From IMG/VR virus record IMGVR_UViG_3300045988_108148: a stretch of 64,000 nucleotides of DNA, one strand, 5' to 3'. Origin of the DNA: a virus. The translations under genes and the position numbers were made by a program. The notes beneath the pieces were generated by a model that was not told the origin of the DNA, made no database searches, and saw only the letters and a program-made list of their open reading frames with translations. Shown one piece after another: positions 39,901 through 56,426 of the stretch (the stretch's first letter is position 1; each line of letters starts with the position of its first letter).

Positions 39901-42900
39901 TTAGAAGAGTTAAGTAAGGAGTTTGAAGAAACCTTAGCCAAAGTAAAAGAAAAAAAACAAGAAGATACTGAAAGGAAACCTAAACCTGAGCCTAAACCAG
40001 TTGTTGAAACTCAAGAAGACGAAGAGGATGAAATAGAATTTGAGCGAGCTGATGAAAAAGCTCTGATAGATCTTGCAAATTCTGAAGCTGTTTCAGACGA
40101 GGATGATAAAAAAGTATCTGAAACTTATGAAACTTCTAATCCTGAAGTAACTGAAGAATCTCAAGTAAAATGGGCCCGTAAGAAGATTGCTACAGAATCT
40201 AAAATGAACAGAAGAGCAGATATGGACTCTGAGACTAGAGATTTGGATGAATCTTTAGAAATTGAGGAAATGGTACAAGATAAAGTATCTCATACACTGT
40301 TCTTTAATCCTGATGCTACAACGCCTATTTATCCTGGTACCAAGCCAGGCAAGGAATTAGCAGAGAGAATAAAAGATCCAAACTTTTTTAATGATAGTTT
40401 CTGTGAGTTTGTTATAAATAAAGATTATACAGAAAAGGGGCATAAACCATATAAAGAAAATGATCCTAGTACATATGATTCTGCATCTATAATAATGTTA
40501 ATTCATCATGGCACTGGCGATTATGCAATGGCTTTGAAAACTCCTTCTGGAGCTAGAACTTTCTTAGCAGCAAAATTAGCTAGCATACCTAAAGAAAGGC
40601 TTACAGAAGAGGATATTAATCTTATTAATAATGCTAATGATTTATCTATAGCAGATTTACGTAGATTTAGAAATGCAGTAATTTCTACAATAGAGTCTGC
40701 GACAAATGATGAAGCTGTAGTACCTAGCACAATAGTTAGAACTAAAGGAATACCTAATGTTGTTAGAAAAGATGGTAGAGCTGTATTCAGACCAATACAC
40801 GAAGTAAAAGGCTTACAGATACCAACAGAAATTACTGAGATTACTCCAGAAAATGTAACATTTGGTATAAGTGATGGTATTGTAAAAGATTCTGATATAA
40901 TAGGAGCCAATGGTGAAATGTTGCCAGGTAAAGGTGGTAGTGGACAATTGTTTATTTATCCACCAAAATCTAGTACTTTATCAAATCAAATGTTGCCATT
41001 ACAATTAACTCTTCAAAGATTTGACAGGAAGCAAGCTGAGTTTTTAGCTGACTTGTTAATCAATTATGGCACTAATACTAACTCTGAATATAGAGATACA
41101 GGAGTTATTGCTGGAGAATTAATTGACTTTATGGTTAGATTTGGAGATGCTACCAAAGTAACCACTGCAGATAAAACATTTGATTGGTTAAAAGAAAAGC
41201 AATTGTATATTGATGATAAATCCAATCTAATAGTTGGTGAAAAAACATTCAATATAGGCAATTTATCTACTCAGGATAAAAAAGACATAGTTGAAGCTTT
41301 AATGGGATTCCATTGGCGTGTAGCTAGAAAGAATTTCTTCAGCCCAATAAAAGAAGCATTACCTTCTGTATATGATTATTTTAACAATAATTCTGTTGAT
41401 TTGCTTGATATCATTCCAGGTATATCTCTTACTAAGGATGATTTCATTTCTTCTACCCCAGTTTATACTATGGGTGTGTTAGAAAAAGCTGGTATAATAA
41501 GAAGTGACTTAGATGATCAACTATTTAAAGATTCTTTCGCATATGCTGAAGATGTTCAAAAGATACCAAGAAAGATCAATAATCCTGAAGTAAAAGAAGC
41601 TGTTGAAAATAAAGCCAGTTCGTTACCAAATATTCCTAGCACCCCAGAACCACAGACAGAGGTTACTGAAGATGTTACGACTTCTGAAGTTACAACTCAA
41701 GATGATTCTTACATAAAGGAAATAACTAATGATGGAGAAATAGATCCTTTGAGTTTGGGAATTGATGAAGATTTTGATGTACCTTTTCGTAAAGTTGCAG
41801 GAAATATATCAGAAGTAGTAACTCCAGAAGAAATTCAATGGTTTAGAAATAAATTAGGATTACCAGAAGATTCTTTACATATCGTTGAAGATGCTATTGC
41901 ACTTGGTGGTAATGAGTATGCTATGGGTCTTGTTAGAAAAGATTCTACCATACTGTGGAAAGGTGCAGAACGTGGTACATTGTATCATGAAGCATTCCAT
42001 AGAGTATCATTATTAACTATTTCTCCAAAGGAAAGAAAGAAAATTTATGAATTCTATAGAAATAGAACTGGTTTTGTTGGAAGTGATAAACAAGTAGAGG
42101 AAGCTTTAGCAGAAGACTTTAGGCAGTATATGCTAAATAAAGTAGATCCTGAATTAAATCTTCTTAAAAGAGCTTGGAAAGCTATTAAGAATTTCATAAG
42201 TAAATGGGTTTGGAGAACCGATACTAGTATTGATAATATTTTTAATAGAATCGATTCTGGTTATTACAATAGATCTAAACAAGATTCGGCTGCTGTAAAT
42301 GAATTTCTTGCTGCATATAAAGGTGCAGGTGCTCCATTTAAAATAAGAAACCACAAATTTAAAAACATTACTAACACACAATTCAAAGAAACTGTAAATT
42401 CACTTGTAGGTGCTTTATTTACATTAAATAACATAAGACTACGTGATGATTTGCAAAATCTTAATTATGGAGTGTTAAAAGCTGCATTAAAACCAGAAAT
42501 AACAGCAAAGTTAGTTGAAAAAGGAACTATTACTAAGGAGCAAGGGGAAGTTAGAAATGAAATATACAATACATTTGATACTGTATTTAAACCAGAAATT
42601 ATAAATAAATTAAATGAGTATCAAATAAGAGCAGTGGATAAGCAGGAAAATATTGATGCAGAGATTGATGAGAAAGCAGTTGGTAATGATGTAGGTGATC
42701 AGATGGCTAACTACATTCAAGAACAATTGGCTGTTTCAGTTAAAGATAATGCTCTTGCATCTATAAAGATTTTCATTGCAACAATGCCTAGGACAGAATT
42801 TGTCATGAAACAAAAAACAAATCCTGATGGCACTGTGACTCAAGTACAAGGTGTTGCTGCAATAAAGAGTCCTGTTACAGGCTTACCTCTAATGGTTGAC

Positions 42901-45900
42901 TTTGATAAATCTTGGAATACAATTATTAATGAAATTCACTCTGAAAATACATTCAAAGGAATGATGGACAAGAGTGCAAAACTTGCTAAAGTAACACCAT
43001 TATTTAAAACTTTGTATAATGAGTTATACAAGATTACAAATGAATATGTACAAAAGAAAGGTATTCAAGAGGACGAAGTTCAAAAAATAGCAAGAGAGAA
43101 TTTACAAACTCAGTTTAGAAACACATTCCGTAAAGCTAGACACAAGTTAGTTGGTATTTTATCAGAAAAAGTTGAAGATGAAAACGGTAATGAACAAACT
43201 AACTTGTATGTTAAAGATGAAAATGCAAATAAAGTATCTAAAAATATATTAGAGGGTTGGAATTACAATTTAATAACAAACAGTGGTGTATTAGATACTT
43301 CTGATAACTTATTTAAAGCAAAAGTTAGTGAGTCTGAAGAATTCGTAGCTAGAGAAATCAACAATGAATTCAATAAAATAATAAAGATTGTAGAAAAATA
43401 CAAAACTACACCTAACAAGAAACTAGTAAATGGTCAAACTTATAAAGAGTATGTACCAGAGAAGTTAATTACTATTAAGAATAAGATAGTTGATTTACTT
43501 AATAAAGTTGGAGTAGAAATTGATTTAGAATCATTAAACTCCTTCCTTACTAAGGAATATTATAATTCAGATTCTACTGAGTCATTAGTTTCAATGTTAT
43601 CAGATAGATCCAATAAAGGTATATATTTCTTCTTTAATTCTAAAGTAAAGGACTTAGCAAAGATTCAAGAAAGTGGCGTAGTTCCTGGTCAATATAATAG
43701 AAGTATTACAAAATATTATGATGACTCTAAATTCTTAGGAAGACTTGCTGAAACATATGCAATGTTGCATCCTTCTTCTGATGAATTATCAGTATTATCT
43801 ACTGATGGTAAATTGTTGTATCCTATATCAGAACACAATTATTTGTCTGACATGGTTCAAAGATTGGATAATGACCCAGCAACAGTAGAAGCACTTACCA
43901 AAGTATTATACAATACTGGTAATAATACCAATCCTAATTACTTCAAGGGTTCTGTATTGTTAACAAATTTATATAATAATGCAGATGCTAAAGGTAAAAT
44001 AGGATTTGAAACTCTTGTTTATTTTAAAGAACAAGGTAGTGCAGATAAAGGACGTAAGTACACAGAAATATCCCCTCTTGAAGACTATATTGCTAAGATG
44101 ACATTCACTAGAGCAGGTAGAATTATCTTACCTACTATGGGTGATTCTCAAACATATAATACATTATATGGTACTGCAATAAACAACTTTAAAAATCCAT
44201 TTGACGTAAGTAATGGTGAAATAAAATTCGATGCTCAAATTCTTAAAAGATTTATTAATTACTTTGAAACTGAATTAGATACCATTGAATTTAATTACAA
44301 GAATGAAAATAATTTAACTGAGGAACAAAAAGTAAAGAACTATGATACAGGAAATAGAAATGGTTATAGATTCAGATACTTCAATGGATTCTTTAAATTG
44401 AAAGAAAGACCTACGTTAAATGGTATTGAATTTGAAAAAGATTTTTCGAACTTTAACGAAGCATTAGACCTAGCAGAAGATCTTGGTGGTAATGAATATG
44501 GAACTTCTATTATTTCTCAAATAAGAAATAATTGGAATAAGTTCAGTAATGCTGAAAAAGCAAATCTAATGAATAACTACCTGTGGGATGCATTTAAAGA
44601 TGAGTTAAATTATGCACAAGAATTAGGTATAATTAAATGGGATGGTAATAAAATAGCTAGTGTAACGAGTTTAGCATTGCCCCAGAAGGCATTAGAAGAA
44701 GCATCATCACATTATAAAAAATCTGCAACAGTTTCTAATTATAGCGAAAATCTTGGTGCTGCTGAAATGATTGGTAATTATTTTGCTAATACCATTTCTT
44801 CAGTAATTGAATTTGAGAAACTTTTTATAAAAGATCCAGCCTACTACAAAAATCCTGTAGATAAAATTAAACGTTTACGTGAGGTATTATCCACTGGTGT
44901 TACTCCAAGAATAGACTACGAAGAAGGAAATACAATGGCAGATCTCACTGAAGTGAACGTAGGTACACTATCAGATAATGTTATCGTAAGTAGACAAGCT
45001 GATCAAATTGCAGAGTATGCTAAAAGATCTGCGGCTATACGCTTGCTTCAGGAAATGCACAATATGACATTAGATGAGGCAATTAGAACTTACGATAGTT
45101 CTGAAGCTTTACCTCAGGATGTAGAAGATGCAGCTAATCTTATAGTAAGAGATAAATTTAATGGTTATCTTAATCCAAAAGGTAAAGTAAACCAAACTGA
45201 TGCCACAGTACTAATATCTCCAGAGTTTTATAAAGAACTAGTACGTAGAGTAGATGGATGGACACCGCAAGTAGCAAAAGCATTTGACTTACTTAATGAT
45301 CCAAATGCAGATCTTGAAGCAGATATGGATACGTATGCAGAAGCATTGGCGGTTACATTGAAACCTTTGAAATTCATGTATTTTGGTGATCATTACGATG
45401 TAGGTGCTAAAAGGGATATACCAATATTTGATAAGATGGCTATGTTCCCTGTACATCGTATCTTCTCTACTGGGGACATGGGTAAAGTATTGGAAGTTAT
45501 GCAATCACGTAATATCCATATGCTTGCTTTTGATTCCGCAGTAAAAGTAGGACAAAGGGCTAAAGAAGTTAAATCAAGAATCTATAAAGATAAGACTAAT
45601 AAAGAAATAGACATGGACAGTCTGATGTCAATGCCTACTCACAAACAATCTTTGGCTAACTTTAGACGTCAGTTAATTACTGATCCTCACCATGCAGAAA
45701 GACAAATGTTTGTATCTCAAGCACAAAAAGCTGCCATGGGTAATATCAGAAGTGCATGGAAATATACTACACCAGATGGTAAAGTATATAATGGTGATGA
45801 GTTGATTAATAATTTTAACGGTGCTCACAATGCCATTACTGAAGCTGGTAGAAGAGAGATAGAAAGAGATTTTGGTATTACTCCAGATAAACCTCAAGTA

Positions 45901-48900
45901 AGTGTACAAAGATTTGCTGAAATTATGCAACGCAAAGCTTTAAGTTCAAACATGAATGACAATGTTATTAATGGTTTGGATGTTGAAAATGGTGAAACTG
46001 TTGCACCAATTTCTGGTTTATCTGATAACTCTTGGATAGAAAGTGGTCTTATATCAATGTTGAATAAGTCAATTGTTGATACTAACTTACCAGGTGGTAT
46101 GTTTATTCAAATGTCTTCAATATTGTACAATAGAATTGCTGTAACTTCAGACGCACAAAATGAAAGAAAGCTAAGATTTGCAAACACTGATGGTACTATG
46201 GATTGTGTTATTTCAATTAACTTATTGAAACACATAATTCCTGATTACGATAAAAAGACTTTCAGTGAAGCTAAAAAGTGGTTGATAGATCATGATATTG
46301 TTGGTCCGAATTCTAAAGCTCTTGCAATGGGTTATCGTATCCCTGCTCAAGGTCAAGCATCAACTGCAGCTCTTAAAGTGGTAGATTTGTATCCTGAACA
46401 AATTGGTGATACTATTACATTACCTGATGAATTTACATCTCTTACTGGTTCTGACTTCGATATTGATAAATTGTTCGTTGCTAGATATAACTATGATAAA
46501 AACGGTAATAGAATCAAATTTGAGACTAAAGAAGATTACACTAACAGACTCAGAGAAGCTGGCTTAGATGATGAAACCATAGTTCGTAAAGTCTACGAAA
46601 GATATAATGGTAAAACTGATTTTGAAGCTAATTCAAAGGAAGCAAATGAAAATATGCTTCTTGATATGTATATATCAGTTATTTCTAACCCACTGAACTT
46701 TGCAGAAGCTAGACAACCACTAGATACAGTAACCGATTACTTAAAAGATACTATTCTTAAAGAAGTAGATACAATAACTGGTCAAGGTAAACGTACAAGC
46801 AAATCCCAACTGTATTATGCCACTCCAGCATTCCAGAGTAGAACTAAGGCAGAGTTGAATGGTGGTAAATTTGGTATTGGTCCATTTGCATTAGCAAATG
46901 CTCATCAAGTTCTTACTCAATTGGTCAAATTAAGATTTAAACCAAATAAAATTTTAAGAGACTATGGTATAAGCAATTTGTATGGTATCCAGAGTAATGA
47001 TAGAAATAAGATTAATATCCTTGACTGGTTATCAGCATTAATCAATGCTCATGTGGACGTTGCAAAAGATCCATACATCATTCGATTGAATGTAAGGAAG
47101 TTAACATTTAATATGACTAACTTCTTGATAAGATCTGGTAAAGGTGAAAGTACATTCTATTTCTTACCTCAACAAATATTAAAAGACTTTGCAATAGAAT
47201 ACGATAAATACTCTGGCTTTTATAATGTAGATACACAAAACAAAAATCCTGAAAGTCTAGCATATAGAACTATTTGGAATACATATTTTGAGAAAGCAAA
47301 ATCTTTATCTAAAGGTAAATATGATCAGCTTTTAGACTTTTTGAATGATAAAGGTGTAGGTGTTAAACAAAGAGAAAAGATGTTCGATGTCAATTACTTA
47401 AAGAAGCAATTGAAAAAAGAAGAAACATTTGATTGGTACTACAATCAGTTGCTCATTATGAAGACTTATCAAGAACTTAATCCGTTCTCAAGATCTTTGT
47501 CTGAATTAACTACATTGTCTCAAATTGATACTAAGCGCTTTGGTAATAATTTTGGTTTACAAAGTGCATTCTTGGATAAATGGAAACAATTCATGGTAGA
47601 GCAACAAGTATTTGAAGATCCTATAAAGGTATTCTCAAATACATTCTTAGGTAAGAAAATGCAAGATGCATTAATATTCCCTAGAATTGCCTTCCAAAAC
47701 ACAATGATTAGACTTACTCCAGAATTTGAAAACTTAAGAACATTAATAGAATTCTATACTAAAGGTTATGCAATTAGTGATGATACATACATTAATAATA
47801 TTACCAGAAGTATGGAAGCTACGTATAAAGCTGGTTTCTTTAATAAGTATTTAGCTGAAAATGGAATAAAGCTCAGTAGTTTGTTAGGTGGTCCAAATAG
47901 TATCTCTAAGAGATTGGATAGAATTAAATCTGATGTAAGAAGTGGCAAATATCCAGATTTATTAAGTAGTGATGGTTCATTTGAAAATGTACTTATTAAT
48001 AACATCTTTAGTAGACCAAAGGAAGATACAACTGAATTAAATGGTCCTGATTTTATTGCTTACAAACCAAACAAGAGTGGTGATAATAACTTAGAAAATG
48101 AGATCATTAGAGCTTGGGAGGAATTGTGGGATAGTGATTATCAGGAAATAAGAGATTTTGCAAAAGATCTTGCATTGTATGCTTTCTATACTTCTGGTGA
48201 TGCATTTGGTAAGAATAATATCTTTAGATATGTACCTAATTCAATCAGAGAGGAAATAGGTTATTTTGATTACATTAGAGATTTAGAACGAAATCCTGAT
48301 GATGCAGTTAAAGATATTAAAGTATTCCAAGTAATAAAAGACTTGTGGTGGAACGACCACGTAGTTCCTACTATTGATTATTACGTATTAGATTCTAGTA
48401 GAGAAACTATTGAAGAAGAAGGTAGACCTGTATACAGGGCGTTACCTCACGAAGATAGTGGTTTTACTGTAGTAAACAAGAAAGGAGTAGAAGTACAAAT
48501 TCCTGGCATCATATATGATAAAAAGTCTCAATCTATAATTTCATTCAATCAAAATGGTCAACCTATATATCCACCATTTAAAAAAGTAAAATTAGATAGA
48601 AATAATGATCCTAGAACTACGTTCCTGTATGAGTACATAGGCATTAATGAAGATGATGCCCCAGTGTACAGATTGATTAACAAGAAGGGAATGAGTTATA
48701 GAGGAAACATATTAATTGAGAGTGGTAGAAATAGATCTGTTCTTAAATACAACAATGTTGTACCAAAGGGTTATGAAATTATGCCAGAAGAACAAATAAC
48801 TTGGGTTACTGATCTTACTCCGGTAAAAGCTAGCTTACAAGCAAAGGCATTTAATCAAGCTGGTGAATTTAATACAGACATGCTTGCTAATATACAGCAA

Positions 48901-51900
48901 ACGGTTAAAACTCAACAAGCAACTGAACCATTATCTTATCAAGAATGGGTTAAAGACTATCAAACTCAAAAAGGTGAAGCTGATGCAGAAGCGGCATATC
49001 AACAATATCTGGATAACTTTGAGTACAGTAGATCACAAGAAACACAAGATATAAATAACTCTGCAAATACTGATAATGATCCTGCTAATTTTAATGATGC
49101 TTCATCAAGTAAAGCAATAATAAGTAGTAATGCAACAATTCTCACAAACGAAGAATTAAGGAAACTTAAACCTTTTGTAGGGAATAACCCTAGAATTGGA
49201 GTAGCTTCTGAATATACTGATCCCGCATTCTTTAGTAAACAGATAATAAGGGTTTTAAATGGTGAAGAAGTGATATCAGATAAATTTGGTAGAACTTTTT
49301 CTGGAACGGATTTCAATGCTTTATATATAATTACAAAGCACGATGGTCTTCCAATTGAGAACTTGTTGAAACACAAAATACCTAAAATAATTCATTTTAG
49401 TATAACTGGATTGGGTGGTACAAAATATGAGCCAGGAGTAATGAAACCTAATGATTTACTTGATAGAATTCAAGCTATGTTAAAATTAGGACTTGACCCA
49501 GAATCTGTTACAATACGAATAGATCCTATAGTTCCTGGTGTAACTTCCACAAAAATGATAGAGAATATTGTAAAGCGTGCTTCAGAAATGGGCATTAAAA
49601 CAATACGTTTCTCTATAATGGATCAATACAAGACTACCAAAAAGTACATGGAGGAATTAGGATACGATTATTCTAAGTTCTATGATGGTGTATCTATGCA
49701 CGCTAGAGATGACGTACGTGAACAAATAGAGACATTTATGGACTCTCTTATAGATAAATATGGAGTTACGATGTCTACTTGTGCAGAACCTCTTTCATCG
49801 AATAGTAGAATTAAACGTGATGCATGTTTGTCCGTAAATGCTGTAAACAACATGTTAGGCACAAATGTACCTCAATCTGCTGGTACAGGTAAACGAAAAC
49901 TATGTTCTTGTTTTGGTGGTAAAACTGACTTATTGAAATATGATAATGTGTGTGCATCTAGCTGTGCTTACTGTTATGCTCATCATAATAATGATAACAT
50001 TCTTAAATATTATAATGAAGATGGTTCATTAAAAGATATACCTCTTACCAGAGTGTCTAAAATTGATGAACAGTCTCCAGTACAACTAAATGCATCTGAA
50101 CAACCCACTACACCTGCAGTAGAACAACCAGCAATTACTGACACTACTAAAGGATTTTCTCTAGAACCGTTTATAAATAAAATATTTCCAGATTGGAAAT
50201 CAAAACTTCCAAATTTGCCAGAGGAATTAGCTGCTGAATTCATGTCATGGAGTATTGTACCTGGGATAGATGAGTGGTCAATAAAAGATAGAATTGAGAA
50301 ATATAAAGATTTTGAAATCGAAGAAGAAACACGGGAAGCAATAAAACGTGGGGATAAAGAAGGAATTGTTCAAGGTATTGCAAACACAATTTCTTATGAA
50401 TTGGCTAAGGATGGAATCACAGAAAGAGATCTATTTATAAATTTATTTGGTCAAAGTTATGTAGATAAGGTAGACAGATATGTTGCTGAAATCAAAGCCG
50501 AAGTTCAGAAAGAAAAAGATACTACTAAGGAATTCTTAGATTATGCTAATCAATTTGGTTTTACTGATGAAGCTGCTTCACTTGCAAAAGACTTACCAAA
50601 AGCAGTTGAAGAAGCTAAGAAAGTAGAAGAAGAGTACGTATTTACATTTAATGATGGGTTTAAGATCAATTTACCATTCTCATTAAATGATCAACAGAAA
50701 TCAGCTCTATATGAATTAGAGAAGTTTATTGAAGATGGTGGAACTGAAATTACTTTATCTGGTTATGCTGGTACAGGTAAATCTACTATCATTGGTATAT
50801 TTAGTAAGTGGTTGAATAATAGAATTGGTAGAGGCAACATTGTATATACTGCTCCTACTCATAGAGCAAATGTTATAACTAAACAAAATAATCTTAATGC
50901 TAATGTATATACGCTTTCTGCTCTATTTGGGTTTACTCCAGATACAGATATAGCAATGGAACAAGGTTCATTGGATTTAAGAGAACTGGAGTTTAGAGCC
51001 AAGAATCAAATGAAATACGAACCAGGTCAATTAATTATCATTGATGAAGCTTCAATGGTACAAGATGGCTTGTATGAATATATTCAAGAAATTGTAGCTA
51101 AACATAACGGTAGTGTAATATATGTTGGGGATTCTGCACAATTGAGACCTGTAAAATCAGATCATATTTCTAAAGTGTTTACATCTGATGGAGTACCTCA
51201 AATAACTTTAACCAAAGTAGAAAGAACTGGTGATAATCCTATTTTAAAAGAAGCCACCAGACTTAGACGAGGTGAAGGATTGAGTTACCAAACTGATATA
51301 AATGATAAAGGTCAAGGAGTATTGTACACTTCGGATGATGCAATTATAGATAAAAACCTGAAACAGATTGTTACTTCTGAAGAGTTCAATGCTGATCCTT
51401 TACATTTTAGAGTATTGACTGCTACAAATGCTGCAGCATCTACATATAATTCAAAGATTAGATCTTTGAGATATGGAAAATTTGCTAAACCATTTGTAAA
51501 AGGTGATATTATAATGGGGTATTCAAACAAACTCAGAAAACCCGATGGATCTTATAGATTAATAAACTCTGGAGATTATATAGTTCAAAGTGTAAAGGAT
51601 ACCAACATTAAATTCAAAACCGATAAAGGGGATATAGAATTTAAAGCATTCAATTTATCAATTAGACCGACTGGTGGTACTATTATGGATGACTTTCAAC
51701 TTACTGTAATTGACAAAAATGAACCAGATTCTAAGCTATTTGAAGTAGTAGAATATAAAGATAGATTGTGGAAAATGGCTAAAGAAGCTAAACAAAATGG
51801 GCAAATATCTAAATATAGAGATTTAGTTCAAATGGCGTACAATGTTGACAATGAACTGAATATTACCAAGAATTTGGAAGATAACCAAGGCAGGTTAAAA

Positions 51901-52263
51901 ATTAGAAAAGCAATTGATTATGGATATGCACAAACTGTTTGGAAATCACAAGGTAGTACGTACAGTAAAGTTTTAATACTCTCCAATGAAATTGATACGT
52001 TTGGTTATGGTAAAGATGTAATGCAATTAAGAAATGAGTTGAGATATGTAGCTGTGTCACGTGCTAAAAACTTTGTTATAATAAATTCAGAAGCAGAGAA
52101 TAAGAAGAAAGTTTCTATGCGAAATGAAATAGCCGAAGAAGATTTATTAGACGATATAGAATTTGAACCAGCTACAGAAGAACAAGCAATAAATGCATCT
52201 TTGCAGGATTCAATTGATGAGTTAACAGCAAATGGTAAACAACGTAGAAAAGAATGTGAATAA
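36994..52263 (+). CDS. giant multidomain virion protein (5089 aa) containing crAss-type two-barrel RNA polymerase, zincin motif, DUF1848-like Fe-S domain and SF1B helicase
   Basis: An uninterrupted 15.27-kb ORF. The motifs are listed as sub-features below. Confidence 0.85.
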   Translation: METSILDKYNAGLIPSKTNATTAAIRQVNAQHSPLTKIKTGYDRELEQTPIDDYEEMYLLDKENPEETLKDKSYLKDAWTTFMNSRDQINLMSERAKLAKDINPVLDDIDYELNFLSDKQKLKNLENTIPTLDENSEEYKNAISEYFQLQRTLADRQEQYDSILSKYGEKEGDNIDARIEYLSNSRKSWEEERSKVNEEINNIYSNLRERSENYTPSSEFRIKEQRAQDKPWYSPDYFLYAGPGLTGSSMATVNGYIADALATGALWLGRHYATTGALNAVPGIGAASNLIGWGSAIAATAASVAGNIYSRHRESLAQVYGAYRSRIEDSLKEQGIDIKQYAEIGRNQLKQQDPNIDVSKISDDEIIDRVISGEININDATLANAKRSLKDGLERVYDNNMALSAMDVAQSALVFAPLGKAMGKIITAPIKTALNPLLKTGTKLSEAAASKYNKLIDAYTGFNARLAYNSPVKNASLQAAKALGRLGFSATGEAFEEANQDIFDYDYISGKYDKKSSSVFQSLMGLADANYRTAKILSGIDTESELANDPQFWNDVKGGFALGLYMGGPTIAYHSGLKTYKDMTANSFVRDVVADHIGKKDAMIKAMSYSEMANKKLNYQQNVLDVLENYKYNLPEGITEQDLNDEIATANNIFSLSKSKVNQNIGKTIGYNPGTTEYNTLIGLQHLATIDAQEALDNANQAQEADNAFYTTLENDQMLNHYSPEEKLTAVALTKLNIQKQALEQLKTALESKPEENQQKFGITNESNAVGKSISKEIPNILKDIDAKLNQLSEGTRFSSNFIATPNLVNKGIDSYVNTMIANHDLLVAEHKMNEIFGNTLEDGKLINFNNASNESKKNIGKKIKERIDNYINNSDEASKIVEENAKDVVEAESAKEMSREAANQSDDQQPITNNETQVDNQVATEVEQEKATSPKTPIMDDRATSDIDTKIPVVEKEIKEDEEFPTKGLEELSKEFEETLAKVKEKKQEDTERKPKPEPKPVVETQEDEEDEIEFERADEKALIDLANSEAVSDEDDKKVSETYETSNPEVTEESQVKWARKKIATESKMNRRADMDSETRDLDESLEIEEMVQDKVSHTLFFNPDATTPIYPGTKPGKELAERIKDPNFFNDSFCEFVINKDYTEKGHKPYKENDPSTYDSASIIMLIHHGTGDYAMALKTPSGARTFLAAKLASIPKERLTEEDINLINNANDLSIADLRRFRNAVISTIESATNDEAVVPSTIVRTKGIPNVVRKDGRAVFRPIHEVKGLQIPTEITEITPENVTFGISDGIVKDSDIIGANGEMLPGKGGSGQLFIYPPKSSTLSNQMLPLQLTLQRFDRKQAEFLADLLINYGTNTNSEYRDTGVIAGELIDFMVRFGDATKVTTADKTFDWLKEKQLYIDDKSNLIVGEKTFNIGNLSTQDKKDIVEALMGFHWRVARKNFFSPIKEALPSVYDYFNNNSVDLLDIIPGISLTKDDFISSTPVYTMGVLEKAGIIRSDLDDQLFKDSFAYAEDVQKIPRKINNPEVKEAVENKASSLPNIPSTPEPQTEVTEDVTTSEVTTQDDSYIKEITNDGEIDPLSLGIDEDFDVPFRKVAGNISEVVTPEEIQWFRNKLGLPEDSLHIVEDAIALGGNEYAMGLVRKDSTILWKGAERGTLYHEAFHRVSLLTISPKERKKIYEFYRNRTGFVGSDKQVEEALAEDFRQYMLNKVDPELNLLKRAWKAIKNFISKWVWRTDTSIDNIFNRIDSGYYNRSKQDSAAVNEFLAAYKGAGAPFKIRNHKFKNITNTQFKETVNSLVGALFTLNNIRLRDDLQNLNYGVLKAALKPEITAKLVEKGTITKEQGEVRNEIYNTFDTVFKPEIINKLNEYQIRAVDKQENIDAEIDEKAVGNDVGDQMANYIQEQLAVSVKDNALASIKIFIATMPRTEFVMKQKTNPDGTVTQVQGVAAIKSPVTGLPLMVDFDKSWNTIINEIHSENTFKGMMDKSAKLAKVTPLFKTLYNELYKITNEYVQKKGIQEDEVQKIARENLQTQFRNTFRKARHKLVGILSEKVEDENGNEQTNLYVKDENANKVSKNILEGWNYNLITNSGVLDTSDNLFKAKVSESEEFVAREINNEFNKIIKIVEKYKTTPNKKLVNGQTYKEYVPEKLITIKNKIVDLLNKVGVEIDLESLNSFLTKEYYNSDSTESLVSMLSDRSNKGIYFFFNSKVKDLAKIQESGVVPGQYNRSITKYYDDSKFLGRLAETYAMLHPSSDELSVLSTDGKLLYPISEHNYLSDMVQRLDNDPATVEALTKVLYNTGNNTNPNYFKGSVLLTNLYNNADAKGKIGFETLVYFKEQGSADKGRKYTEISPLEDYIAKMTFTRAGRIILPTMGDSQTYNTLYGTAINNFKNPFDVSNGEIKFDAQILKRFINYFETELDTIEFNYKNENNLTEEQKVKNYDTGNRNGYRFRYFNGFFKLKERPTLNGIEFEKDFSNFNEALDLAEDLGGNEYGTSIISQIRNNWNKFSNAEKANLMNNYLWDAFKDELNYAQELGIIKWDGNKIASVTSLALPQKALEEASSHYKKSATVSNYSENLGAAEMIGNYFANTISSVIEFEKLFIKDPAYYKNPVDKIKRLREVLSTGVTPRIDYEEGNTMADLTEVNVGTLSDNVIVSRQADQIAEYAKRSAAIRLLQEMHNMTLDEAIRTYDSSEALPQDVEDAANLIVRDKFNGYLNPKGKVNQTDATVLISPEFYKELVRRVDGWTPQVAKAFDLLNDPNADLEADMDTYAEALAVTLKPLKFMYFGDHYDVGAKRDIPIFDKMAMFPVHRIFSTGDMGKVLEVMQSRNIHMLAFDSAVKVGQRAKEVKSRIYKDKTNKEIDMDSLMSMPTHKQSLANFRRQLITDPHHAERQMFVSQAQKAAMGNIRSAWKYTTPDGKVYNGDELINNFNGAHNAITEAGRREIERDFGITPDKPQVSVQRFAEIMQRKALSSNMNDNVINGLDVENGETVAPISGLSDNSWIESGLISMLNKSIVDTNLPGGMFIQMSSILYNRIAVTSDAQNERKLRFANTDGTMDCVISINLLKHIIPDYDKKTFSEAKKWLIDHDIVGPNSKALAMGYRIPAQGQASTAALKVVDLYPEQIGDTITLPDEFTSLTGSDFDIDKLFVARYNYDKNGNRIKFETKEDYTNRLREAGLDDETIVRKVYERYNGKTDFEANSKEANENMLLDMYISVISNPLNFAEARQPLDTVTDYLKDTILKEVDTITGQGKRTSKSQLYYATPAFQSRTKAELNGGKFGIGPFALANAHQVLTQLVKLRFKPNKILRDYGISNLYGIQSNDRNKINILDWLSALINAHVDVAKDPYIIRLNVRKLTFNMTNFLIRSGKGESTFYFLPQQILKDFAIEYDKYSGFYNVDTQNKNPESLAYRTIWNTYFEKAKSLSKGKYDQLLDFLNDKGVGVKQREKMFDVNYLKKQLKKEETFDWYYNQLLIMKTYQELNPFSRSLSELTTLSQIDTKRFGNNFGLQSAFLDKWKQFMVEQQVFEDPIKVFSNTFLGKKMQDALIFPRIAFQNTMIRLTPEFENLRTLIEFYTKGYAISDDTYINNITRSMEATYKAGFFNKYLAENGIKLSSLLGGPNSISKRLDRIKSDVRSGKYPDLLSSDGSFENVLINNIFSRPKEDTTELNGPDFIAYKPNKSGDNNLENEIIRAWEELWDSDYQEIRDFAKDLALYAFYTSGDAFGKNNIFRYVPNSIREEIGYFDYIRDLERNPDDAVKDIKVFQVIKDLWWNDHVVPTIDYYVLDSSRETIEEEGRPVYRALPHEDSGFTVVNKKGVEVQIPGIIYDKKSQSIISFNQNGQPIYPPFKKVKLDRNNDPRTTFLYEYIGINEDDAPVYRLINKKGMSYRGNILIESGRNRSVLKYNNVVPKGYEIMPEEQITWVTDLTPVKASLQAKAFNQAGEFNTDMLANIQQTVKTQQATEPLSYQEWVKDYQTQKGEADAEAAYQQYLDNFEYSRSQETQDINNSANTDNDPANFNDASSSKAIISSNATILTNEELRKLKPFVGNNPRIGVASEYTDPAFFSKQIIRVLNGEEVISDKFGRTFSGTDFNALYIITKHDGLPIENLLKHKIPKIIHFSITGLGGTKYEPGVMKPNDLLDRIQAMLKLGLDPESVTIRIDPIVPGVTSTKMIENIVKRASEMGIKTIRFSIMDQYKTTKKYMEELGYDYSKFYDGVSMHARDDVREQIETFMDSLIDKYGVTMSTCAEPLSSNSRIKRDACLSVNAVNNMLGTNVPQSAGTGKRKLCSCFGGKTDLLKYDNVCASSCAYCYAHHNNDNILKYYNEDGSLKDIPLTRVSKIDEQSPVQLNASEQPTTPAVEQPAITDTTKGFSLEPFINKIFPDWKSKLPNLPEELAAEFMSWSIVPGIDEWSIKDRIEKYKDFEIEEETREAIKRGDKEGIVQGIANTISYELAKDGITERDLFINLFGQSYVDKVDRYVAEIKAEVQKEKDTTKEFLDYANQFGFTDEAASLAKDLPKAVEEAKKVEEEYVFTFNDGFKINLPFSLNDQQKSALYELEKFIEDGGTEITLSGYAGTGKSTIIGIFSKWLNNRIGRGNIVYTAPTHRANVITKQNNLNANVYTLSALFGFTPDTDIAMEQGSLDLRELEFRAKNQMKYEPGQLIIIDEASMVQDGLYEYIQEIVAKHNGSVIYVGDSAQLRPVKSDHISKVFTSDGVPQITLTKVERTGDNPILKEATRLRRGEGLSYQTDINDKGQGVLYTSDDAIIDKNLKQIVTSEEFNADPLHFRVLTATNAAASTYNSKIRSLRYGKFAKPFVKGDIIMGYSNKLRKPDGSYRLINSGDYIVQSVKDTNIKFKTDKGDIEFKAFNLSIRPTGGTIMDDFQLTVIDKNEPDSKLFEVVEYKDRLWKMAKEAKQNGQISKYRDLVQMAYNVDNELNITKNLEDNQGRLKIRKAIDYGYAQTVWKSQGSTYSKVLILSNEIDTFGYGKDVMQLRNELRYVAVSRAKNFVIINSEAENKKKVSMRNEIAEEDLLDDIEFEPATEEQAINASLQDSIDELTANGKQRRKECE
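37714..37923 (+). other. glycine-zipper/hydrophobic membrane-active segment of giant protein
   Basis: AGPGLTGSSMATVNGYIADALATGALWLGRHYATTGALNAVPGIGAASNLIGWGSAIAATAASVAGNIYS. Confidence 0.6.
41986..42000 (+). other. HEXXH zincin metallopeptidase motif (HEAFH, aa 1665-1669)
   Basis: Context GAERGTLYHEAFHRVSLL with downstream EEALAEDFRQY as a possible third ligand or Glu helix. Confidence 0.55.
46453..46467 (+). other. DxDxD catalytic motif (DFDID, aa 3154-3158) of double-psi beta-barrel RNA polymerase
   Basis: The context MGYRIPAQGQASTAALKVVDLYPEQIGDTITLPDEFTSLTGSDFDIDKLFV parallels the NRAPTLH...NADFDGD region of beta-prime. This motif type is known from crAss-like virion RNAPs. Confidence 0.8.
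49189..49990 (+). other. DUF1848-like Fe-S (radical-SAM/SPL-related) domain, aa about 4066-4332
   Basis: The ordered motifs are VASEYTDPAFF, IITKHDG, IHFSITGLGG, RIDPIVPGV, IRFSIMDQYK, STCAEP and GKRKLCSCFGGKTDLLKYDNVCASSCAYCYAHHN. They match the DUF1848 pattern (ASRRTDIPAF...FWTK...RYDPI...ETCAE...CGC...C..C.YCYAN). Confidence 0.65.
50670..52090 (+). other. SF1B (RecD/Dda/Pif1-like) helicase domain, aa about 4560-5035
   Basis: Motif I GYAGTGKST, Ia VYTAPTHRAN, II LIIIDEASMV, III VIYVGDSAQLRPV, V YAQTVWKSQGSTYSKV, VI LRYVAVSRAKNFVII. Confidence 0.85.
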
Positions 52264-52265
52264 TT

Positions 52266-55200
52266 ATGCAGTGTTTAAATGTTAAAAATAAAGAGGTTGC
52301 AGCTTTACTAAAGCAATATACAAAGATATTGGGTAATGAAAATGCTGCATATTATGTGTTATCAGAAAACAATGGTTATGGTTTAGATAAGGCTCCCAAT
52401 GGGGAGCCATCTAAGCTATTTTCAGATTTAGTTAATCATTTTAATGGTAATAAGAAAGAAGCTATACGAACAAAGTCATTAATATATTCTGCACAATTTA
52501 GACAGATAAGAAACATTGTATTAAATAATGATGGAGAAGTATCTATAGATGTGTTATTAAATAATTCAGATAAAATAAATAACCCATCATACGTTCCAAA
52601 AAAAATACATGAAACGTATAATAAACTTATTCAAGCTTTGTCAAGGCGAATAAAAGATATTCAATATGCAAAATATAGTGACAGTAAGAAAGTAGATGAA
52701 CTAAGAGCATTGGAATTTAAATTAAATCAATTGGAAAACGATCAAGCTACTTTTGAATTTGTAGATTATATGGCAAGTGACGTAATATCCGCATTAAATG
52801 AAGTAAAGGCTTTACAAACCAAAGTAAATGAAAACCAAAAGTACAATAACCCGCTAGATCTAACTTCTGCAGAATTAGATATGATAAAGAAAGGTTATAT
52901 TGGCTTTTATGGTAACATTGCTACTAATATCCAGAACATGTTGGATGATGAATCTACGTTTGACTATTTAAATGATCCTCAATTAGTTGAGGATACAAAA
53001 CAAAACTTAAAAAGGACTGTAGGTGACTACTATGAATTAGTAAGAAACTATAACAATTTAGCAGACATTGTTGCTAAAGATAATTTTATTAGAGAAGCAA
53101 CTAAAGCCGGTTCATTTACTATAGATCATCTTAAAAAAATATTAGATGAAGGTGATGTGGATATAAATCTATGGGATCAGTGGGCAGGTAATACACAATA
53201 TTCTAATAGTGAGTTAGTACGTATAATTCTTAACAAGATAGTTAATACTAAAAATAATGTTGCTGAAAAAGAACTAGAAGTAGGTAAAGAGCTTGTAGAA
53301 ATACTATCACATGTAAATAAATCTAAGTTAGCTTATATGCATGAAAAAAATAAAGATGGTCATAAAACAGGCTTTATAACAAGAGACTTAAATTACGGTC
53401 AACACTATCAAGATTACTTGGAACATCAAAAAAAGTTAGCCGAAAAGTTAGGATTTGGAGATAAGGATATTGCTGAAGTACCTAGTTTATTGAATCCAGA
53501 GCAACTAAAGAAATGGAATAAAGCAAATAATGATTGGGAAGCTAAGCATACAATTCGTAAGTTTACTCCAGAGTATTACGAGCTAACTAACAGTCTTAGT
53601 GAAGAAGCAAGATCTCGTAGAGATTCCATAAATATGGAAATAAACCTATTGTTAAGTACTACCGTTGATAAGAACGGAGATTACCACAGAGAAGATTTAT
53701 CCGATGAAGATTATCTAAAATTACAAGAGTTAGAAACTAGACGTAGAAATTTAGCTAATCCATATTATCCAGATGGTTCAGTAAAAGTTGGATTAGATAA
53801 AGAAATAGCAATAGAAATGAGAGAGTATAATGAAAAATTAAGAGAGAAATTACATTATACTCCAAATATGGAAAAATTTAACAAAGCTCTACAAAATGCA
53901 AAAAAGAACTTAAGTCCAGAAAAATTTGCTAAGTGGGAACAACGCAATACAGTTGATCAAATAATTGAAGAATTCTGGGACGATATTAAAACTCTTTCAT
54001 CAAACGCAAATAAATCTGATGATCAAACACTATATGAAACGGCTAGAAAGAACATGTTAAGACTTTACACCAGAGAAGATGGTAAAGTAGATGTTGATAG
54101 CATGCCTGACCAAGTAAAGTCGTGGATTAATACTTATGATGAATTGATTTCTGAGGAAAGTTTGAAAACTCGTGATAAATCAAAGAAATCCAAAGTAATG
54201 GACATAGCTGAATGGGAAGTAAACCCTAGATTCTATGAAGAATTAGAAAGAGTTGAAAAATTAGGTCAAGCTGAATATAATGCGTGGGTTTCTATAAATG
54301 CTAGATATGACTATGAAGGAAATCTTGTACCAGCTTCCTTTTGGAAGAAATTAGTTCCGAAGAAAGAGTTAAGATCTAAATACATGCGCAAAGTACCTAA
54401 CAGATCCTGGTCTGAAATCGATAAAGAATCACCTTTCTACGATAAAAGATTTACTAAATATGCAGATCGTGGAGAAACAAGAATTCCAAATCCTGAATTG
54501 TATGACAACAGTGCAAATTATCGTAAAATAACTTCTGATTCAAACTTAAAGAAGCTTTATGATAAACTTGTTGATGTAATGGAATTATCAAATTCTAAGA
54601 TTCAATTCTTAAAGTATGAAAACAAATATAGACTACCACAAATAGAAGGTGGGGCATGGACACAAATCCGAAGTAAGGACAATATTTTAAAGGGGTTAGC
54701 GTATGCAATAGAAGATACTTACACTGTAAAGGATGATGATACTGCATATATGTTGGAAAATGCTAAACGATCAGATGGGTCACTTGTTAAACTTATACCT
54801 ACTAGGTATATTAAGATGTTATCAAATCCAGACGCTTTAACAAACGATATAGTAGGATCTGTCATTGCTTATTACAAAATGGCAGAAAATTATGAACAAA
54901 TGAGTGAAATTGCCCCAGAATTAGAAGTAGCTCTTGATTTTGTTAGTCGTACAGATTTTACCGATAAGAAGGGTGGTAGAATACAAGGTTTGGAAAGTAA
55001 GACATATGATAAATTAAAATCTGTACTAGATCAATTGGTATATGGTATGGAAAAGAATGCATTAGAATTAGATGTTCCTTTACCAAAAGGCAAACATGTG
55101 ACAGTAAGTGTTGGTAAGTTAGCTGCTAATTTAGCTGCATACACTAGAATACAAGGCATAGCTCAAAATATGAATGTGATTCTTACTGGTCTTATTACAA

Positions 55201-56426
55201 ACAAAATACAAAATAGACTCGAAGCAATCTCTGGTATATACTTTGGAAATAAGGAACTTGCACAAGCAACAAAATTAATTATACCGTCATATGCGAATGC
55301 AATAAAGAACATAGGTCATTCAAACAACAAAGACAAGGTTCTATGTTATATGGAGTATTTAGGTGTAGTAAGAGAAAATGCTCAAACCTTTAGTAAACTT
55401 AATCAATCTAGATTTTTAAGAGCATTAAATCAACACTTCTGGTATTTTGGACATGAAATGTCAGATTATGTAACAAAAGGTAAAATGGCATTGGCAATTG
55501 GTCTATACTATAAATATGATCCTGAATCTGGTAAATTCTTAAATAAGAACGAATTCCTAAGAAGATTTAAGAGCAAAAAGGAAGGCAATGCCAAATGGAA
55601 TACTTTAGGTATAACTTTTTATGATGCATTTGAAGTTAAAAACAACAAACTAGTAATAAAACCAGAGTACGCTAAATCTCTCGATGAAGCTACTATAAAC
55701 AAAGTTAGAAATACGGCAAAACAGGTAGGTACCAGAATTGACACGCAATTAACAGATTTGGATAGAAGTAAATTACATGCAACTGTGATTGGACAATTGT
55801 TGCTTATCTTCCGTAACTTTATTTTGGTTAACTTACAAACTAAGTTCTTAACTAAACGTCAATTTAACTATTCTACAGGCATGTGGAGCGAAGCTCAAGT
55901 ACCAGCTGCAGTTAAATATGTATATAGACATTACTTTAATCAGAACAAAATAGATCAATTAAAGGAACTATATCAAAATCATTATGATGAATTGGACGAT
56001 TTCGAAAAAGGATGTCTTAAAAGAGTTACTTATGAAGTTTTATTTTCCACAGTAGGTTTCATGATCATTTCTTCTCTTATCAGAGCAATGGCAGATGATG
56101 ACAAACGTAATTGGTGGAAACAAGAAGCAGCGTATCTTACTCTAAGAGCTTCATTAGAGACACGTGGTAACATATTACCTATTGAAGTAATTAACTTACT
56201 TAATACTCCTACTGCTGCATGGTCTACTTTACAATATTGGGGTGACTTAACTACAATGATGTTGAATGATCCCACACAAGAGATAAAAAAAGGTCCATAC
56301 AAGGGTATGAACCGATTCCAACGATCCTTAATTAAGGCTACTCCTTTAAGAAGTATATGGGAAGCACAAGATCCAAGATCAAAAATGGAGTATTACGATA
56401 ACATGATTTCAATATTTAACTTTTAA
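52266..56426 (+). CDS. large internal virion/ejection protein candidate (1386 aa) with C-terminal TM helices
   Basis: The ATG lies 2 nt after the giant ORF stop. It is coiled-coil rich, with hydrophobic helices IGQLLLIFRNFILVNL and VLFSTVGFMIISSLI near the C-terminus. It is the last gene of the plus-strand block. Confidence 0.55.
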   Translation: MQCLNVKNKEVAALLKQYTKILGNENAAYYVLSENNGYGLDKAPNGEPSKLFSDLVNHFNGNKKEAIRTKSLIYSAQFRQIRNIVLNNDGEVSIDVLLNNSDKINNPSYVPKKIHETYNKLIQALSRRIKDIQYAKYSDSKKVDELRALEFKLNQLENDQATFEFVDYMASDVISALNEVKALQTKVNENQKYNNPLDLTSAELDMIKKGYIGFYGNIATNIQNMLDDESTFDYLNDPQLVEDTKQNLKRTVGDYYELVRNYNNLADIVAKDNFIREATKAGSFTIDHLKKILDEGDVDINLWDQWAGNTQYSNSELVRIILNKIVNTKNNVAEKELEVGKELVEILSHVNKSKLAYMHEKNKDGHKTGFITRDLNYGQHYQDYLEHQKKLAEKLGFGDKDIAEVPSLLNPEQLKKWNKANNDWEAKHTIRKFTPEYYELTNSLSEEARSRRDSINMEINLLLSTTVDKNGDYHREDLSDEDYLKLQELETRRRNLANPYYPDGSVKVGLDKEIAIEMREYNEKLREKLHYTPNMEKFNKALQNAKKNLSPEKFAKWEQRNTVDQIIEEFWDDIKTLSSNANKSDDQTLYETARKNMLRLYTREDGKVDVDSMPDQVKSWINTYDELISEESLKTRDKSKKSKVMDIAEWEVNPRFYEELERVEKLGQAEYNAWVSINARYDYEGNLVPASFWKKLVPKKELRSKYMRKVPNRSWSEIDKESPFYDKRFTKYADRGETRIPNPELYDNSANYRKITSDSNLKKLYDKLVDVMELSNSKIQFLKYENKYRLPQIEGGAWTQIRSKDNILKGLAYAIEDTYTVKDDDTAYMLENAKRSDGSLVKLIPTRYIKMLSNPDALTNDIVGSVIAYYKMAENYEQMSEIAPELEVALDFVSRTDFTDKKGGRIQGLESKTYDKLKSVLDQLVYGMEKNALELDVPLPKGKHVTVSVGKLAANLAAYTRIQGIAQNMNVILTGLITNKIQNRLEAISGIYFGNKELAQATKLIIPSYANAIKNIGHSNNKDKVLCYMEYLGVVRENAQTFSKLNQSRFLRALNQHFWYFGHEMSDYVTKGKMALAIGLYYKYDPESGKFLNKNEFLRRFKSKKEGNAKWNTLGITFYDAFEVKNNKLVIKPEYAKSLDEATINKVRNTAKQVGTRIDTQLTDLDRSKLHATVIGQLLLIFRNFILVNLQTKFLTKRQFNYSTGMWSEAQVPAAVKYVYRHYFNQNKIDQLKELYQNHYDELDDFEKGCLKRVTYEVLFSTVGFMIISSLIRAMADDDKRNWWKQEAAYLTLRASLETRGNILPIEVINLLNTPTAAWSTLQYWGDLTTMMLNDPTQEIKKGPYKGMNRFQRSLIKATPLRSIWEAQDPRSKMEYYDNMISIFNF

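Follow-up and report, generated by a model that had tools for sequence, protein, structure and literature searches.

The window considered here is the whole 64,000-nucleotide stretch of the IMG/VR virus record IMGVR_UViG_3300045988_108148. Its plus strand carries a giant open reading frame (ORF) that joins, in one predicted polypeptide, the core of a crAss-type RNA polymerase (RNAP) and a superfamily 1B (SF1B) DNA helicase that resembles Dda of phage T4. Read from the N- to the C-terminus, about 1600 residues with no assigned function are followed by a zincin-type HEAFH motif, a two-barrel RNAP with a DFDID motif, a swappable cassette, the helicase and a short conserved tail (Table 1). The nearest public genome is that of the uncultured phage cr50_1 (Crassvirales, Suoliviridae, Boorivirinae, Cohcovirus), with 96.6% nucleotide identity over 88% of a 12-kb query. 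The homologous coding sequence (CDS) of cr50_1 encodes 4774 residues, is annotated as a "DNA helicase", and is 98% identical over residues 1-4018 of the giant. Judged by these identities, the source phage is a Cohcovirus-like crassvirus.

The polymerase assignment is based on a phmmer match of the region listed in Table 1 to gp66, the virion RNAP of the crAss-like phage phi14:2 (6VR4; E = 1.1e-29). The catalytic DFDID is found at residues 3154-3158 (nt 46453-46467), such that the giant has both hallmarks of a crAss-type virion RNAP, the DFDxD motif and homology to the gp66 core. The muzzle protein gene lies upstream, which places the giant ORF in the block of genes for virion and cargo proteins. 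A preliminary description of the window, made from the sequence alone, had assigned the helicase to a late or virion block, and this placement holds, given that the helicase is downstream of the muzzle gene and fused in frame to the RNAP. With a zincin motif, an RNAP, a DUF1848 domain and a helicase in a single ORF downstream of the muzzle gene, the giant can be classed, by sequence, as a polyvalent protein.

Table 1. Features of the window. Positions are nucleotides of the window; residue numbers (aa) are those of the giant protein.
Feature	Position	Strand	Basis
Crassvirus muzzle protein gene	29099..33112	+	Pfam crAss_MUZ E = 0 (1216 bits), crAss_MUZ_C 3.7e-20
Giant ORF, 5089 aa, predicted polyvalent virion-RNAP protein (zincin motif, RNAP, cassette, helicase)	36994..52263	+	ORF list, no internal stops
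Zincin-type HEAFH motif, aa 1665-1669, candidate processing protease site	41986..42000	+	only HExxH in the giant
crAss-type two-barrel RNAP core, aa 2730-3228	45181..46677	+	phmmer match to 6VR4
Variable cassette, aa 4019-4502 (DUF1848 module and helical module)	49048..50499	+	
DUF1848 match, aa 4122-4329	49357-49980	+	Pfam, 1.4e-22
Cassette helical module, aa ~4378-4502		+	
Dda-like SF1B helicase module, aa 4503-5034 (~60-aa N-terminal helical extension and core with motifs I-VI)	50500..52095	+	
C-terminal tail (acidic disordered linker, amphipathic helix, terminal ...GKQRRKECE and stop)	52096..52263	+	
Downstream 1386-aa gene, same block, begins 2 nt past the stop codon of the giant	52266..56426	+	ORF list
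3' end of DnaB-type replicative helicase gene, remainder past the window	63693..63998	-	DnaB_C 9e-8

The helicase can be recognized by its motifs. The frame of the giant contains GYAGTGKST (with GTGKST at residues 4593-4598, nt 50770-50787), YTAPTHRA, IIDEASMV, VGDSAQLRPV, LTKVERTG, KSQGSTY and YVAVSRAK, which together make up motifs I, Ia, II, III, IV, V and VI. The six shorter strings quoted in the preliminary description (GTGKST, TAPTHRA, DEASMV, VGDSAQLRPV, QGSTY and VAVSRAK) are all intact in this translation. Pfam returns AAA_30 (1.3e-24) as well as AAA_19, PIF1, Viral_helicase1 and, weakly, UvrD_C_2, and the PHROG 325 "Dda-like helicase" profile matches with 1.3e-71. The best relative of solved structure is, by sequence, T4 Dda (3UPU; 1.9e-14, about 21% identity). 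The seven motifs are retained in 33 fused copies, barring three single-residue exceptions, and the invariant alignment columns include the Walker B D/E, the G, D and Q of motif III, and the Q of motif V.

An AlphaFold2 model of residues 4503-5089 was generated from an alignment of 52 sequences, with a mean predicted local distance difference test score (pLDDT) of 86.4 and a predicted template modelling score (pTM) of 0.78. The top Foldseek match to this model is T4 Dda (3UPU; E = 8.9e-29, target TM 0.77), followed by DSH9, RecD2 and Pif1, and the SF1A enzyme UvrD appears only at rank 49 of the list. The secondary structure, read without superposition, includes a long helical hairpin (model residues 410-452) that would fit a Dda-like tower. 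The module scores 86.4 bits with the NCBIfam RecD2 equivalog TIGR01448, for which the cut-off is 500 bits; it is RecD2-like in fold, rather than an orthologue of RecD2. By its motifs and its modelled fold, the module is a Dda-like SF1B DNA helicase, predicted to be catalytically intact and of the 5'-to-3' type, and the earlier identification of a complete RecD/Dda-like enzyme is thereby borne out by motifs, Pfam, PHROG 325 and the sequence and structure matches to T4 Dda. The interval originally given for it, 50670-52090, does cover the helicase core, but the conserved module, helicase and tail together, is slightly larger (50500-52260, residues 4503-5089). Its boundary was set by collinearity with cr50_1, with the related phage at IMG/VR locus L005 and with cr118_1.

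The frame of the fusion was surveyed in the raw sequence of 27 close IMG/VR relatives, with a 10-kb flank. In 22 of them, the helicase frame stays open through the entire flank (at least 3333 codons). In five further relatives, the frame of the giant is broken only by an insertion in which a 234-codon ORF lies between the halves of a group I intron (L011 5403-6327, also L017, L018, L019 and L027); the halves match RF00028 with E-values of 2.5e-9 and 1.2e-7, both under the gathering score. The insertion falls at about residues 3200-3330 of the window protein and is not present in the window. TGA stops about 1250 codons upstream in these five relatives were considered as gene boundaries and rejected, given that they are part of the inserted intron. 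The 234-codon ORF is a putative homing endonuclease. In L004, there is a frameshift about 575 codons upstream of the helicase.

Database gene calls for close homologues are C-terminal pieces of 686-1056 residues, and the giant ORFs are never listed. A separate helicase gene, as these entries would imply, was rejected, since the raw ORFs show that the calls are truncated pieces of continuous giants; the lengths in protein databases are misleading for this gene family. An independent translation start was also rejected. The sole ATG between residues 4330 and 4580 has a poor, non-AT-rich context and is part of a dispensable module, one that is missing from many relatives. The C-terminal position of the helicase on an RNAP polyprotein, as first described, is upheld by the frame that is open in 22 of 27 relatives and interrupted by nothing but an intron in five more, with no plausible internal start.

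Pairwise comparison divides the giant into three zones. The body, residues 1 to about 4018, is 98% identical to cr50_1, 68% to L005 and 30% to cr118_1. Residues 4019-4502 have no similarity even to cr50_1. The helicase module, residues 4503-5089, is again alignable, at 92% identity to cr50_1, 44% to L005 and 27% to cr118_1. Over 27 comparisons, the median ratio of nonsynonymous to synonymous substitution rates (dN/dS) is 0.12 for the helicase module and 0.02 for the RNAP body. Purifying selection acts on the helicase, which is less tightly constrained than the polymerase.

The middle zone is a variable cassette, which was compared in 32 sequences (the window, L001 and L003-L032). There are 18 variants of 142-498 residues, each a multiple of three nucleotides in length and free of stops; that of the window is unlike the 169-residue equivalent in the 98%-identical cr50_1. 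The cassette combines about seven modules in mosaic fashion, with short linkers between them that are rich in Q, S, E and P, such as QQDLFASEQ. Three modules score with Pfam as cpYpsA (SLOG; 1.8e-23), NADAR (3.9e-17) and DUF1848 (1.4e-22). Modules M3, M5, M6 and M7 have no Pfam matches, and searches of the cassette modules against PDB sequences were uninformative. Shuffling of effector domains is typical of polyvalent proteins, and it is seen here as 18 variants built from about seven modules in genomes that are more than 90% identical. The alignments mark the junction of RNAP body and helicase as a hot spot of recombination.

With regard to function, DUF1848 matches the PADLOC model RTasDUF1848, a protein associated with defence reverse transcriptases (DRT), with 1.3e-27; beyond this association, the literature says little on DUF1848. 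In the literature, phage NADAR and SLOG domains are read as enzymes, either packaged in the virion or acting early, that counter immunity based on NAD+ or ADP-ribose. Taken together, the continuous frames, the in-frame cassettes, the retained motifs and the low dN/dS argue that the helicase is made within the giant protein and is functionally constrained.

The fused helicase is followed by a tail that is common to the giants of this family. In the model, residues 536-558 have low pLDDT and residues 560-586 form a helix. An ending of the form ...GK.R.KECE is common to the window and to cr125_1, the giant of which has no helicase, as if the cassette and helicase had been inserted behind the RNAP body and ahead of a conserved tail. 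A Cys lies within the last six residues in all six Suoliviridae giants, and the conserved tail may serve as a packaging or interaction signal. The C-termini of the giants of the window, cr125_1 (L037), cr118_1 (L046), cr1_1 (L036) and cr4_1 (L038) have an acidic stretch followed by a short basic tail.

Upstream of the polymerase, the HEAFH motif is part of YHEAFHRVSLL (residues 1664-1674), and the pattern YHEAFH.VSLL does not vary among six Suoliviridae giants with 25-30% identity elsewhere. Neither Pfam nor NCBIfam models match this region. A zincin domain has been reported for orthologues of gp65, and some phages have a polyprotein in which gp65, gp66 and gp67 are joined. The region is, on the strength of the motif, probably the zincin protease of the polyprotein.

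Several neighbouring features complete the picture of the locus. The downstream 1386-residue gene has no Pfam matches; its counterpart in L005, a phage 68% related to that of the window, encodes 1844 residues (L005 12058-17592) with an ART-PolyVal domain. In L031/L058 (IMGVR_UViG_3300045988_096239), the helicase ORF lacks its last few residues and stop and reads on in frame for 1479 codons, into a homologue of the downstream gene, to give an ORF of at least 5385 residues. From position 56450 on, the opposite strand encodes a PDDEXK-like protein, a metallophosphatase, a DnaG-type primase, an AAA_24 ATPase and, at the window edge, the DnaB_C end. This C-terminal end of a DnaB-type helicase, noted in the preliminary description, is distinct from the SF1B helicase; its cr50_1 orthologue has 303 residues and a DnaB_C match of 7.6e-22. 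The AAA_24 gene is intact in the window (62317-63060, minus strand), and in cr50_1 it is apparently in two pieces (L001 29171-30922) around an HNH endonuclease gene, probably as a result of an intron or homing-endonuclease insertion.

The fusion is not confined to Cohcovirus. Among the Suoliviridae, it is present in Cohcovirus, in L005 and in Besingivirus, where the giant of cr118_1 is a 4946-residue CDS annotated as "exonuclease V". Intestiviridae (cr11_1, cr8_1, cr3_1, cr107_1 and p-crAssphage) and Crevaviridae (cr127_1) have a stand-alone SF1 helicase of 480-500 residues beside UDG and PolB. The cr50_1 and cr118_1 records each have one place for an SF1 helicase, and neither the window nor a 35-kb cr50_1 stretch (L001) has any besides the fused copy.

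A wider, alignment-based scan of IMG/VR covered a sample of 80 loci with helicase homologues, where a giant was defined as an ORF of at least 1400 residues. The helicase is within a giant ORF at 26 of the 80 loci, three of them only under TAG recoding. Eleven of these giants match the RNAP body of the window directly, and 11 more have the motif [SG]DFD[IV]DK; a profile of eight such motif regions matches gp66 over residues 1016-1700 with 8.3e-77. By these matches, at least 22 of the 26 helicase-bearing giants are crAss-type RNAPs. Many of these giants come from IMG/VR datasets besides the gut dataset that yielded the Cohcovirus loci. The helicase usually follows the RNAP in the polypeptide; in L068 it precedes the RNAP, and in L112 a further 1742 residues come after it. 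Three of the giants of the scan (L061-L063) form single ORFs of 4019-4380 residues if TAG is translated as a sense codon, but not otherwise, and the giants of L037 (cr125_1) and L038 (cr4_1) have 38-78 in-frame stops under the standard code. Both findings agree with the published reassignment of TAG in Suoliviridae.

The survey was also suited to address a point raised at the outset, whether related phages encode the helicase as a separate gene beside the RNAP. No such arrangement was found: the 10 kb around each of the 54 stand-alone copies contain no crAss-type RNAP core, so the helicase is either fused or elsewhere. The neighbours of the helicase in other lineages include Kinase-PolyVal (L068, P0084 and P0103), ART-PolyVal (P0106), NADAR (L129), a 2H-type phosphodiesterase (L112), DUF7831 (L072 and L077) and DUF1848 (P0069).

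In phylogenetic trees, the SF1 helicases of crAss replication blocks form one clade with 99% bootstrap. Nearly all RNAP-fused helicases, from the window and cr118_1 to divergent lineages of other IMG/VR datasets, form a separate clade with 100% bootstrap, outside of which fall L130/L134 and L053. The fused clade contains one stand-alone subclade, with proteins of 439-491 residues encoded on contigs of 35-187 kb, mostly above 100 kb. This well-supported subclade comprises L073-L075, L078-L080, L082-L085, L087, L092-L101 and L105, with no crAss-type RNAP within 10 kb. Its members may be secondary releases from the fusion or, alternatively, the donor lineage. The trees fit a single ancient acquisition of the helicase by a crAss-type RNAP gene, with later losses and a few further captures that were independent.

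One such capture involved a different polymerase. In L053 (9800-15409), a single frame that is open for 1870 codons to the contig end encodes a 2OG-Fe(II) oxygenase (PF13532, 2.4e-16), a helicase (AAA_30, 5.8e-22, with UvrD_C_2) and then an N4-type virion RNAP (vRNAP) domain (PF21867, 2.8e-7). The helicase is Dda-like and 32% identical to that of the window. L050 (10001-17651) is collinear with L053 but frameshifted, and adds vRNAP_plug, N4_RNAP_helical and vRNAP_dom. A canonical N4-like phage has a separate 425-residue gene for its Dda-like helicase, which adjoins the DNA polymerase gene and lies on the strand opposite to the virion RNAP, at a distance of about 9 kb from it. The possibility that the adjacency of helicase and vRNAP in L050 is the normal N4 gene order was rejected on the basis of the DFL12phi1 layout and the intact L053 frame. 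L054 has a 4048-residue ORF that has an N-terminal segment in common with L053 and no Pfam matches. In L053, an N4-type virion RNAP, unrelated to the crAss type, has independently acquired a Dda-like helicase, as a convergent fusion. N4-type virion RNAPs have been classed as polyvalent proteins, with fusions to MPTase, ART, lysozyme and PBECR; that account names no helicase and no AlkB for them (Iyer et al. 2017, PMC5512222).

What a helicase might do on such a protein is suggested by work on its homologues. In phi14:2, gp66 is packaged in the virion. Mass spectrometry of crAss001 virions detects gp47, gp49 and gp50, which have been modelled as capsid cargo that refolds after ejection, and which in that model exits ahead of the DNA. 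Recombinant gp66 transcribes single-stranded DNA (ssDNA) or denatured DNA, but hardly native double-stranded DNA (dsDNA). QDE-1 of Neurospora, a eukaryotic relative of the crAss RNAP, requires the helicase QDE-3 and RPA. The N4 virion RNAP is reported to have similarly unusual template requirements.

By analogy with phi14:2 and crAss001, the giant would be capsid cargo and be ejected before the DNA or together with it, and it may be cut by its own zincin domain. If the giant is indeed packaged and ejected, its helicase would act on the incoming genome before any phage gene expression. It would load on the entering DNA and either open it or strip bound proteins, and the ssDNA-dependent RNAP, along with the neighbouring DNA- or nucleotide-directed effector modules, would thereby reach the DNA. 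The ssDNA dependence of gp66 and the partnership of QDE-1 with QDE-3 make a tethered helicase plausible as a partner that opens DNA or clears roadblocks. We give this explanation as a whole, a fused helicase that is delivered with the virion and works on the entering DNA, a probability of about 0.5. That the helicase is a virion-delivered, early-acting module of a polyvalent RNAP protein seems somewhat more probable than not; that it is specifically the template-opening partner of the RNAP is a more tentative proposal, with the odds somewhat against it. Of the initial suggestion that the helicase unwinds the entering genome, the structural half stands, in that the enzyme is complete, fused and part of the virion block, and the proposed function has circumstantial support from the template preference of gp66, the recurrence of the fusion and the N4-type fusion.

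Several points weigh against a helicase that opens entering DNA for the RNAP. Loading of an SF1B helicase requires a 5' ssDNA tail, whereas the entering DNA is double-stranded. The module was not found in the giants of cr1_1, cr125_1 and cr4_1, which have short, unrelated tails instead, and a profile search of the complete cr1_1 genome, the one genome of these three that was scanned as a whole, found no SF1 helicase; the module is an accessory rather than a core part of the RNAP. The helicase evolves about five times faster than the RNAP body, as fits accessory domains driven by conflict. Its flanks are always polyvalent-type effectors (NADAR, SLOG, DUF1848, Kinase-PolyVal, ART-PolyVal and 2H), which suits counter-defence as much as transcription. 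The trees are neighbour-joining trees only, with 100-200 bootstraps, and are crude but consistent. Packaging is known from the phi14:2 and crAss001 homologues, and by the time of a 2023 review no member of the Suoliviridae had been brought into culture.

Counter-defence is the main rival. A virion-delivered helicase would displace or stall restriction, Cas or other DNA-bound defence proteins, without a role in transcription; in a variant, it would act with DUF1848, NADAR and SLOG, or with the PF13532 oxygenase in L053, to scan, repair or de-modify DNA, much like the helicase half of P1 DarB. The helicase does stand directly after a hypervariable cassette of conflict domains (cpYpsA/SLOG, NADAR and DUF1848), and the DUF1848 module matches the DRT-associated PADLOC model. 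Kinase-PolyVal, ART-PolyVal, NADAR or 2H domains lie beside it in relatives, and the adjacency of DUF1848 and helicase recurs in P0069, a relative with 37% identity. The patchy distribution of the module and its faster evolution than the RNAP body point in the same direction, as do the reading of virion-packaged NADAR and SLOG as counter-defence in the literature and the recognition of helicases, such as that of DarB, in polyvalent proteins (PMC5512222). Yet the helicase is constant within the genus, unlike the cassette modules, and its clade tracks the crAss-type RNAP giants. Both independent captures were onto virion RNAPs that require ssDNA templates, for N4 as reported in the literature on its templates, and the helicases known to date from polyvalent proteins belong to the SNF2 or UvrD types, with coupling to methylases, rather than being Dda-like (PMC5512222). 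Counter-defence alone is thus judged somewhat unlikely. The same can be said of a joint reading, itself doubtful in full, in which a Dda-like lineage that co-evolved with virion RNAPs would be their missing DNA-opening factor and the cassette would use the exposed ssDNA to repair or de-modify incoming DNA.

The remaining explanations fare less well. A replication or recombination helicase might have been appended to a late gene and be released by the zincin, to act either upon delivery or late in the cell where it was made, such that its link to the RNAP has no functional meaning. Phylogeny and the consistent fusion partner make this relocation improbable: the fused clade (100%) is not sister to the replication-block clade (99%), and the same partner, a virion RNAP, recurs in many lineages with no adjacent-gene intermediates, where random relocation predicts otherwise. 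The frame is also kept across all 18 cassette variants, and cr1_1 replicates without any SF1 helicase. Relocation would nonetheless account for the stand-alone copy by the replication genes in Intestiviridae, Crevaviridae and N4-like phages and for the fact that no second SF1 helicase is seen in records with a fused copy (cr50_1, cr118_1, the window and the L001 stretch), and the invariant zincin motif could free the helicase. The preliminary description also raised the possibility that the helicase drives DNA translocation, for which no specific support was found. An ejected helicase would have to anchor at the entry channel and pull the genome in by ATP-driven translocation. Genome internalization by an RNAP is known from T7, and cargo leaves before the DNA in the crAss001 model, but Dda-like SF1B enzymes translocate on ssDNA and not on dsDNA. 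Giants of three other Suoliviridae genera lack the module although about 100 kb must be injected, and the AlphaFold2 model has no membrane- or channel-binding feature, so that an entry motor is very improbable. Finally, the short database gene calls of 686-1056 residues and the L004 frameshift could be taken as signs of an error of assembly or gene calling, or of a decaying, inactive helicase. This is refuted by the raw sequence of the window and of 22 of 27 loci, in which the frame is continuous, and by the in-frame cassette variants, the retained motifs, the dN/dS of 0.12 and the confident fold prediction.

A virion-delivered helicase that works on entering DNA would bear on an open problem, namely how an enzyme that uses only ssDNA or denatured DNA starts on a double-stranded genome in the cell. 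A helicase in the same polypeptide is a concrete and testable candidate for the start of transcription on dsDNA. Crassviruses are the most abundant phages of the human gut, and their virion RNAP is, to our knowledge, the only characterised one of its kind. The swapping of counter-defence-type domains between near-identical gut phages also bears on phage-host arms races in the microbiome and on genome annotation.

Parts of this picture were already known, including the multidomain proteins of the crAss transcription block and their polyprotein fusions, as well as polyvalent virion proteins with helicase modules (PMC5512222). Public records already flag a helicase in the giant genes, currently under the labels "DNA helicase", "exonuclease V" and "hypothetical". 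A search of the texts of the literature, which did not extend to figures such as Fig. 3 of Yutin et al. 2021, found no helicase in the crAss transcription block; nor do those texts contain a recurrent Dda-like module of crAss RNAPs, its clade, the in-frame cassette or the N4-type fusion. The concept of the polyvalent protein is hereby extended to crAss-type RNAP giants.

The window protein can be compared to several known systems. With T4 Dda and RecD2, the helicase has in common the full set of SF1 motifs and the best structural match. Dda is a free protein of about 440 residues, whereas the window helicase is residues 4503-5089 of a giant and has in addition the N-terminal helical extension of about 60 residues and an acidic and helical tail of 55 residues. 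The gp14-type replication helicase of p-crAssphage belongs to the same broad Dda-like family, with about 28% identity to the window helicase. The gp14-type enzymes are stand-alone proteins of 480-500 residues encoded beside UDG and PolB on the replication strand, such that the window helicase differs from them in both place and clade.

With gp66 of phi14:2 and gp47, gp49 and gp50 of crAss001, the giant has in common the DFDID centre, the match to 6VR4 and a genomic position after the muzzle and cargo genes, but the window RNAP has an appended swappable cassette and a Dda-like helicase. No helicase module is described in the texts on these proteins that were searched, among which the gp66 preprint names QDE-3 as its sole helicase; that search for the term did not extend to the crAss001 paper. 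QDE-1 is structurally related to the crAss RNAP and prefers ssDNA, and a helicase tethered to the polymerase would be a version in cis of the partnership of QDE-1 and QDE-3. QDE-3 is a RecQ-type (SF2) enzyme and a separate protein, and the analogy with the fused helicase would be functional only.

The polyvalent proteins described by Iyer et al. (2017, PMC5512222) are likewise giant multidomain products of late genes, with a zincin motif, an RNAP for early transcription and shuffled conflict domains. The window protein differs from them in that its RNAP is of the crAss two-barrel type and not of the N4 type, its helicase is a Dda-like SF1B enzyme rather than SNF2 or UvrD, and the pairing with a methylase is absent. 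The text of that work has no mention of crAss, Dda, RecD, SF1, AlkB or DUF1848. P1 DarB, in which a methylase is joined to an SNF2 helicase (PMC5512222), is an example of the methylase-coupled arrangement, while in the window the helicase is joined to a crAss-type RNAP and a swappable cassette.

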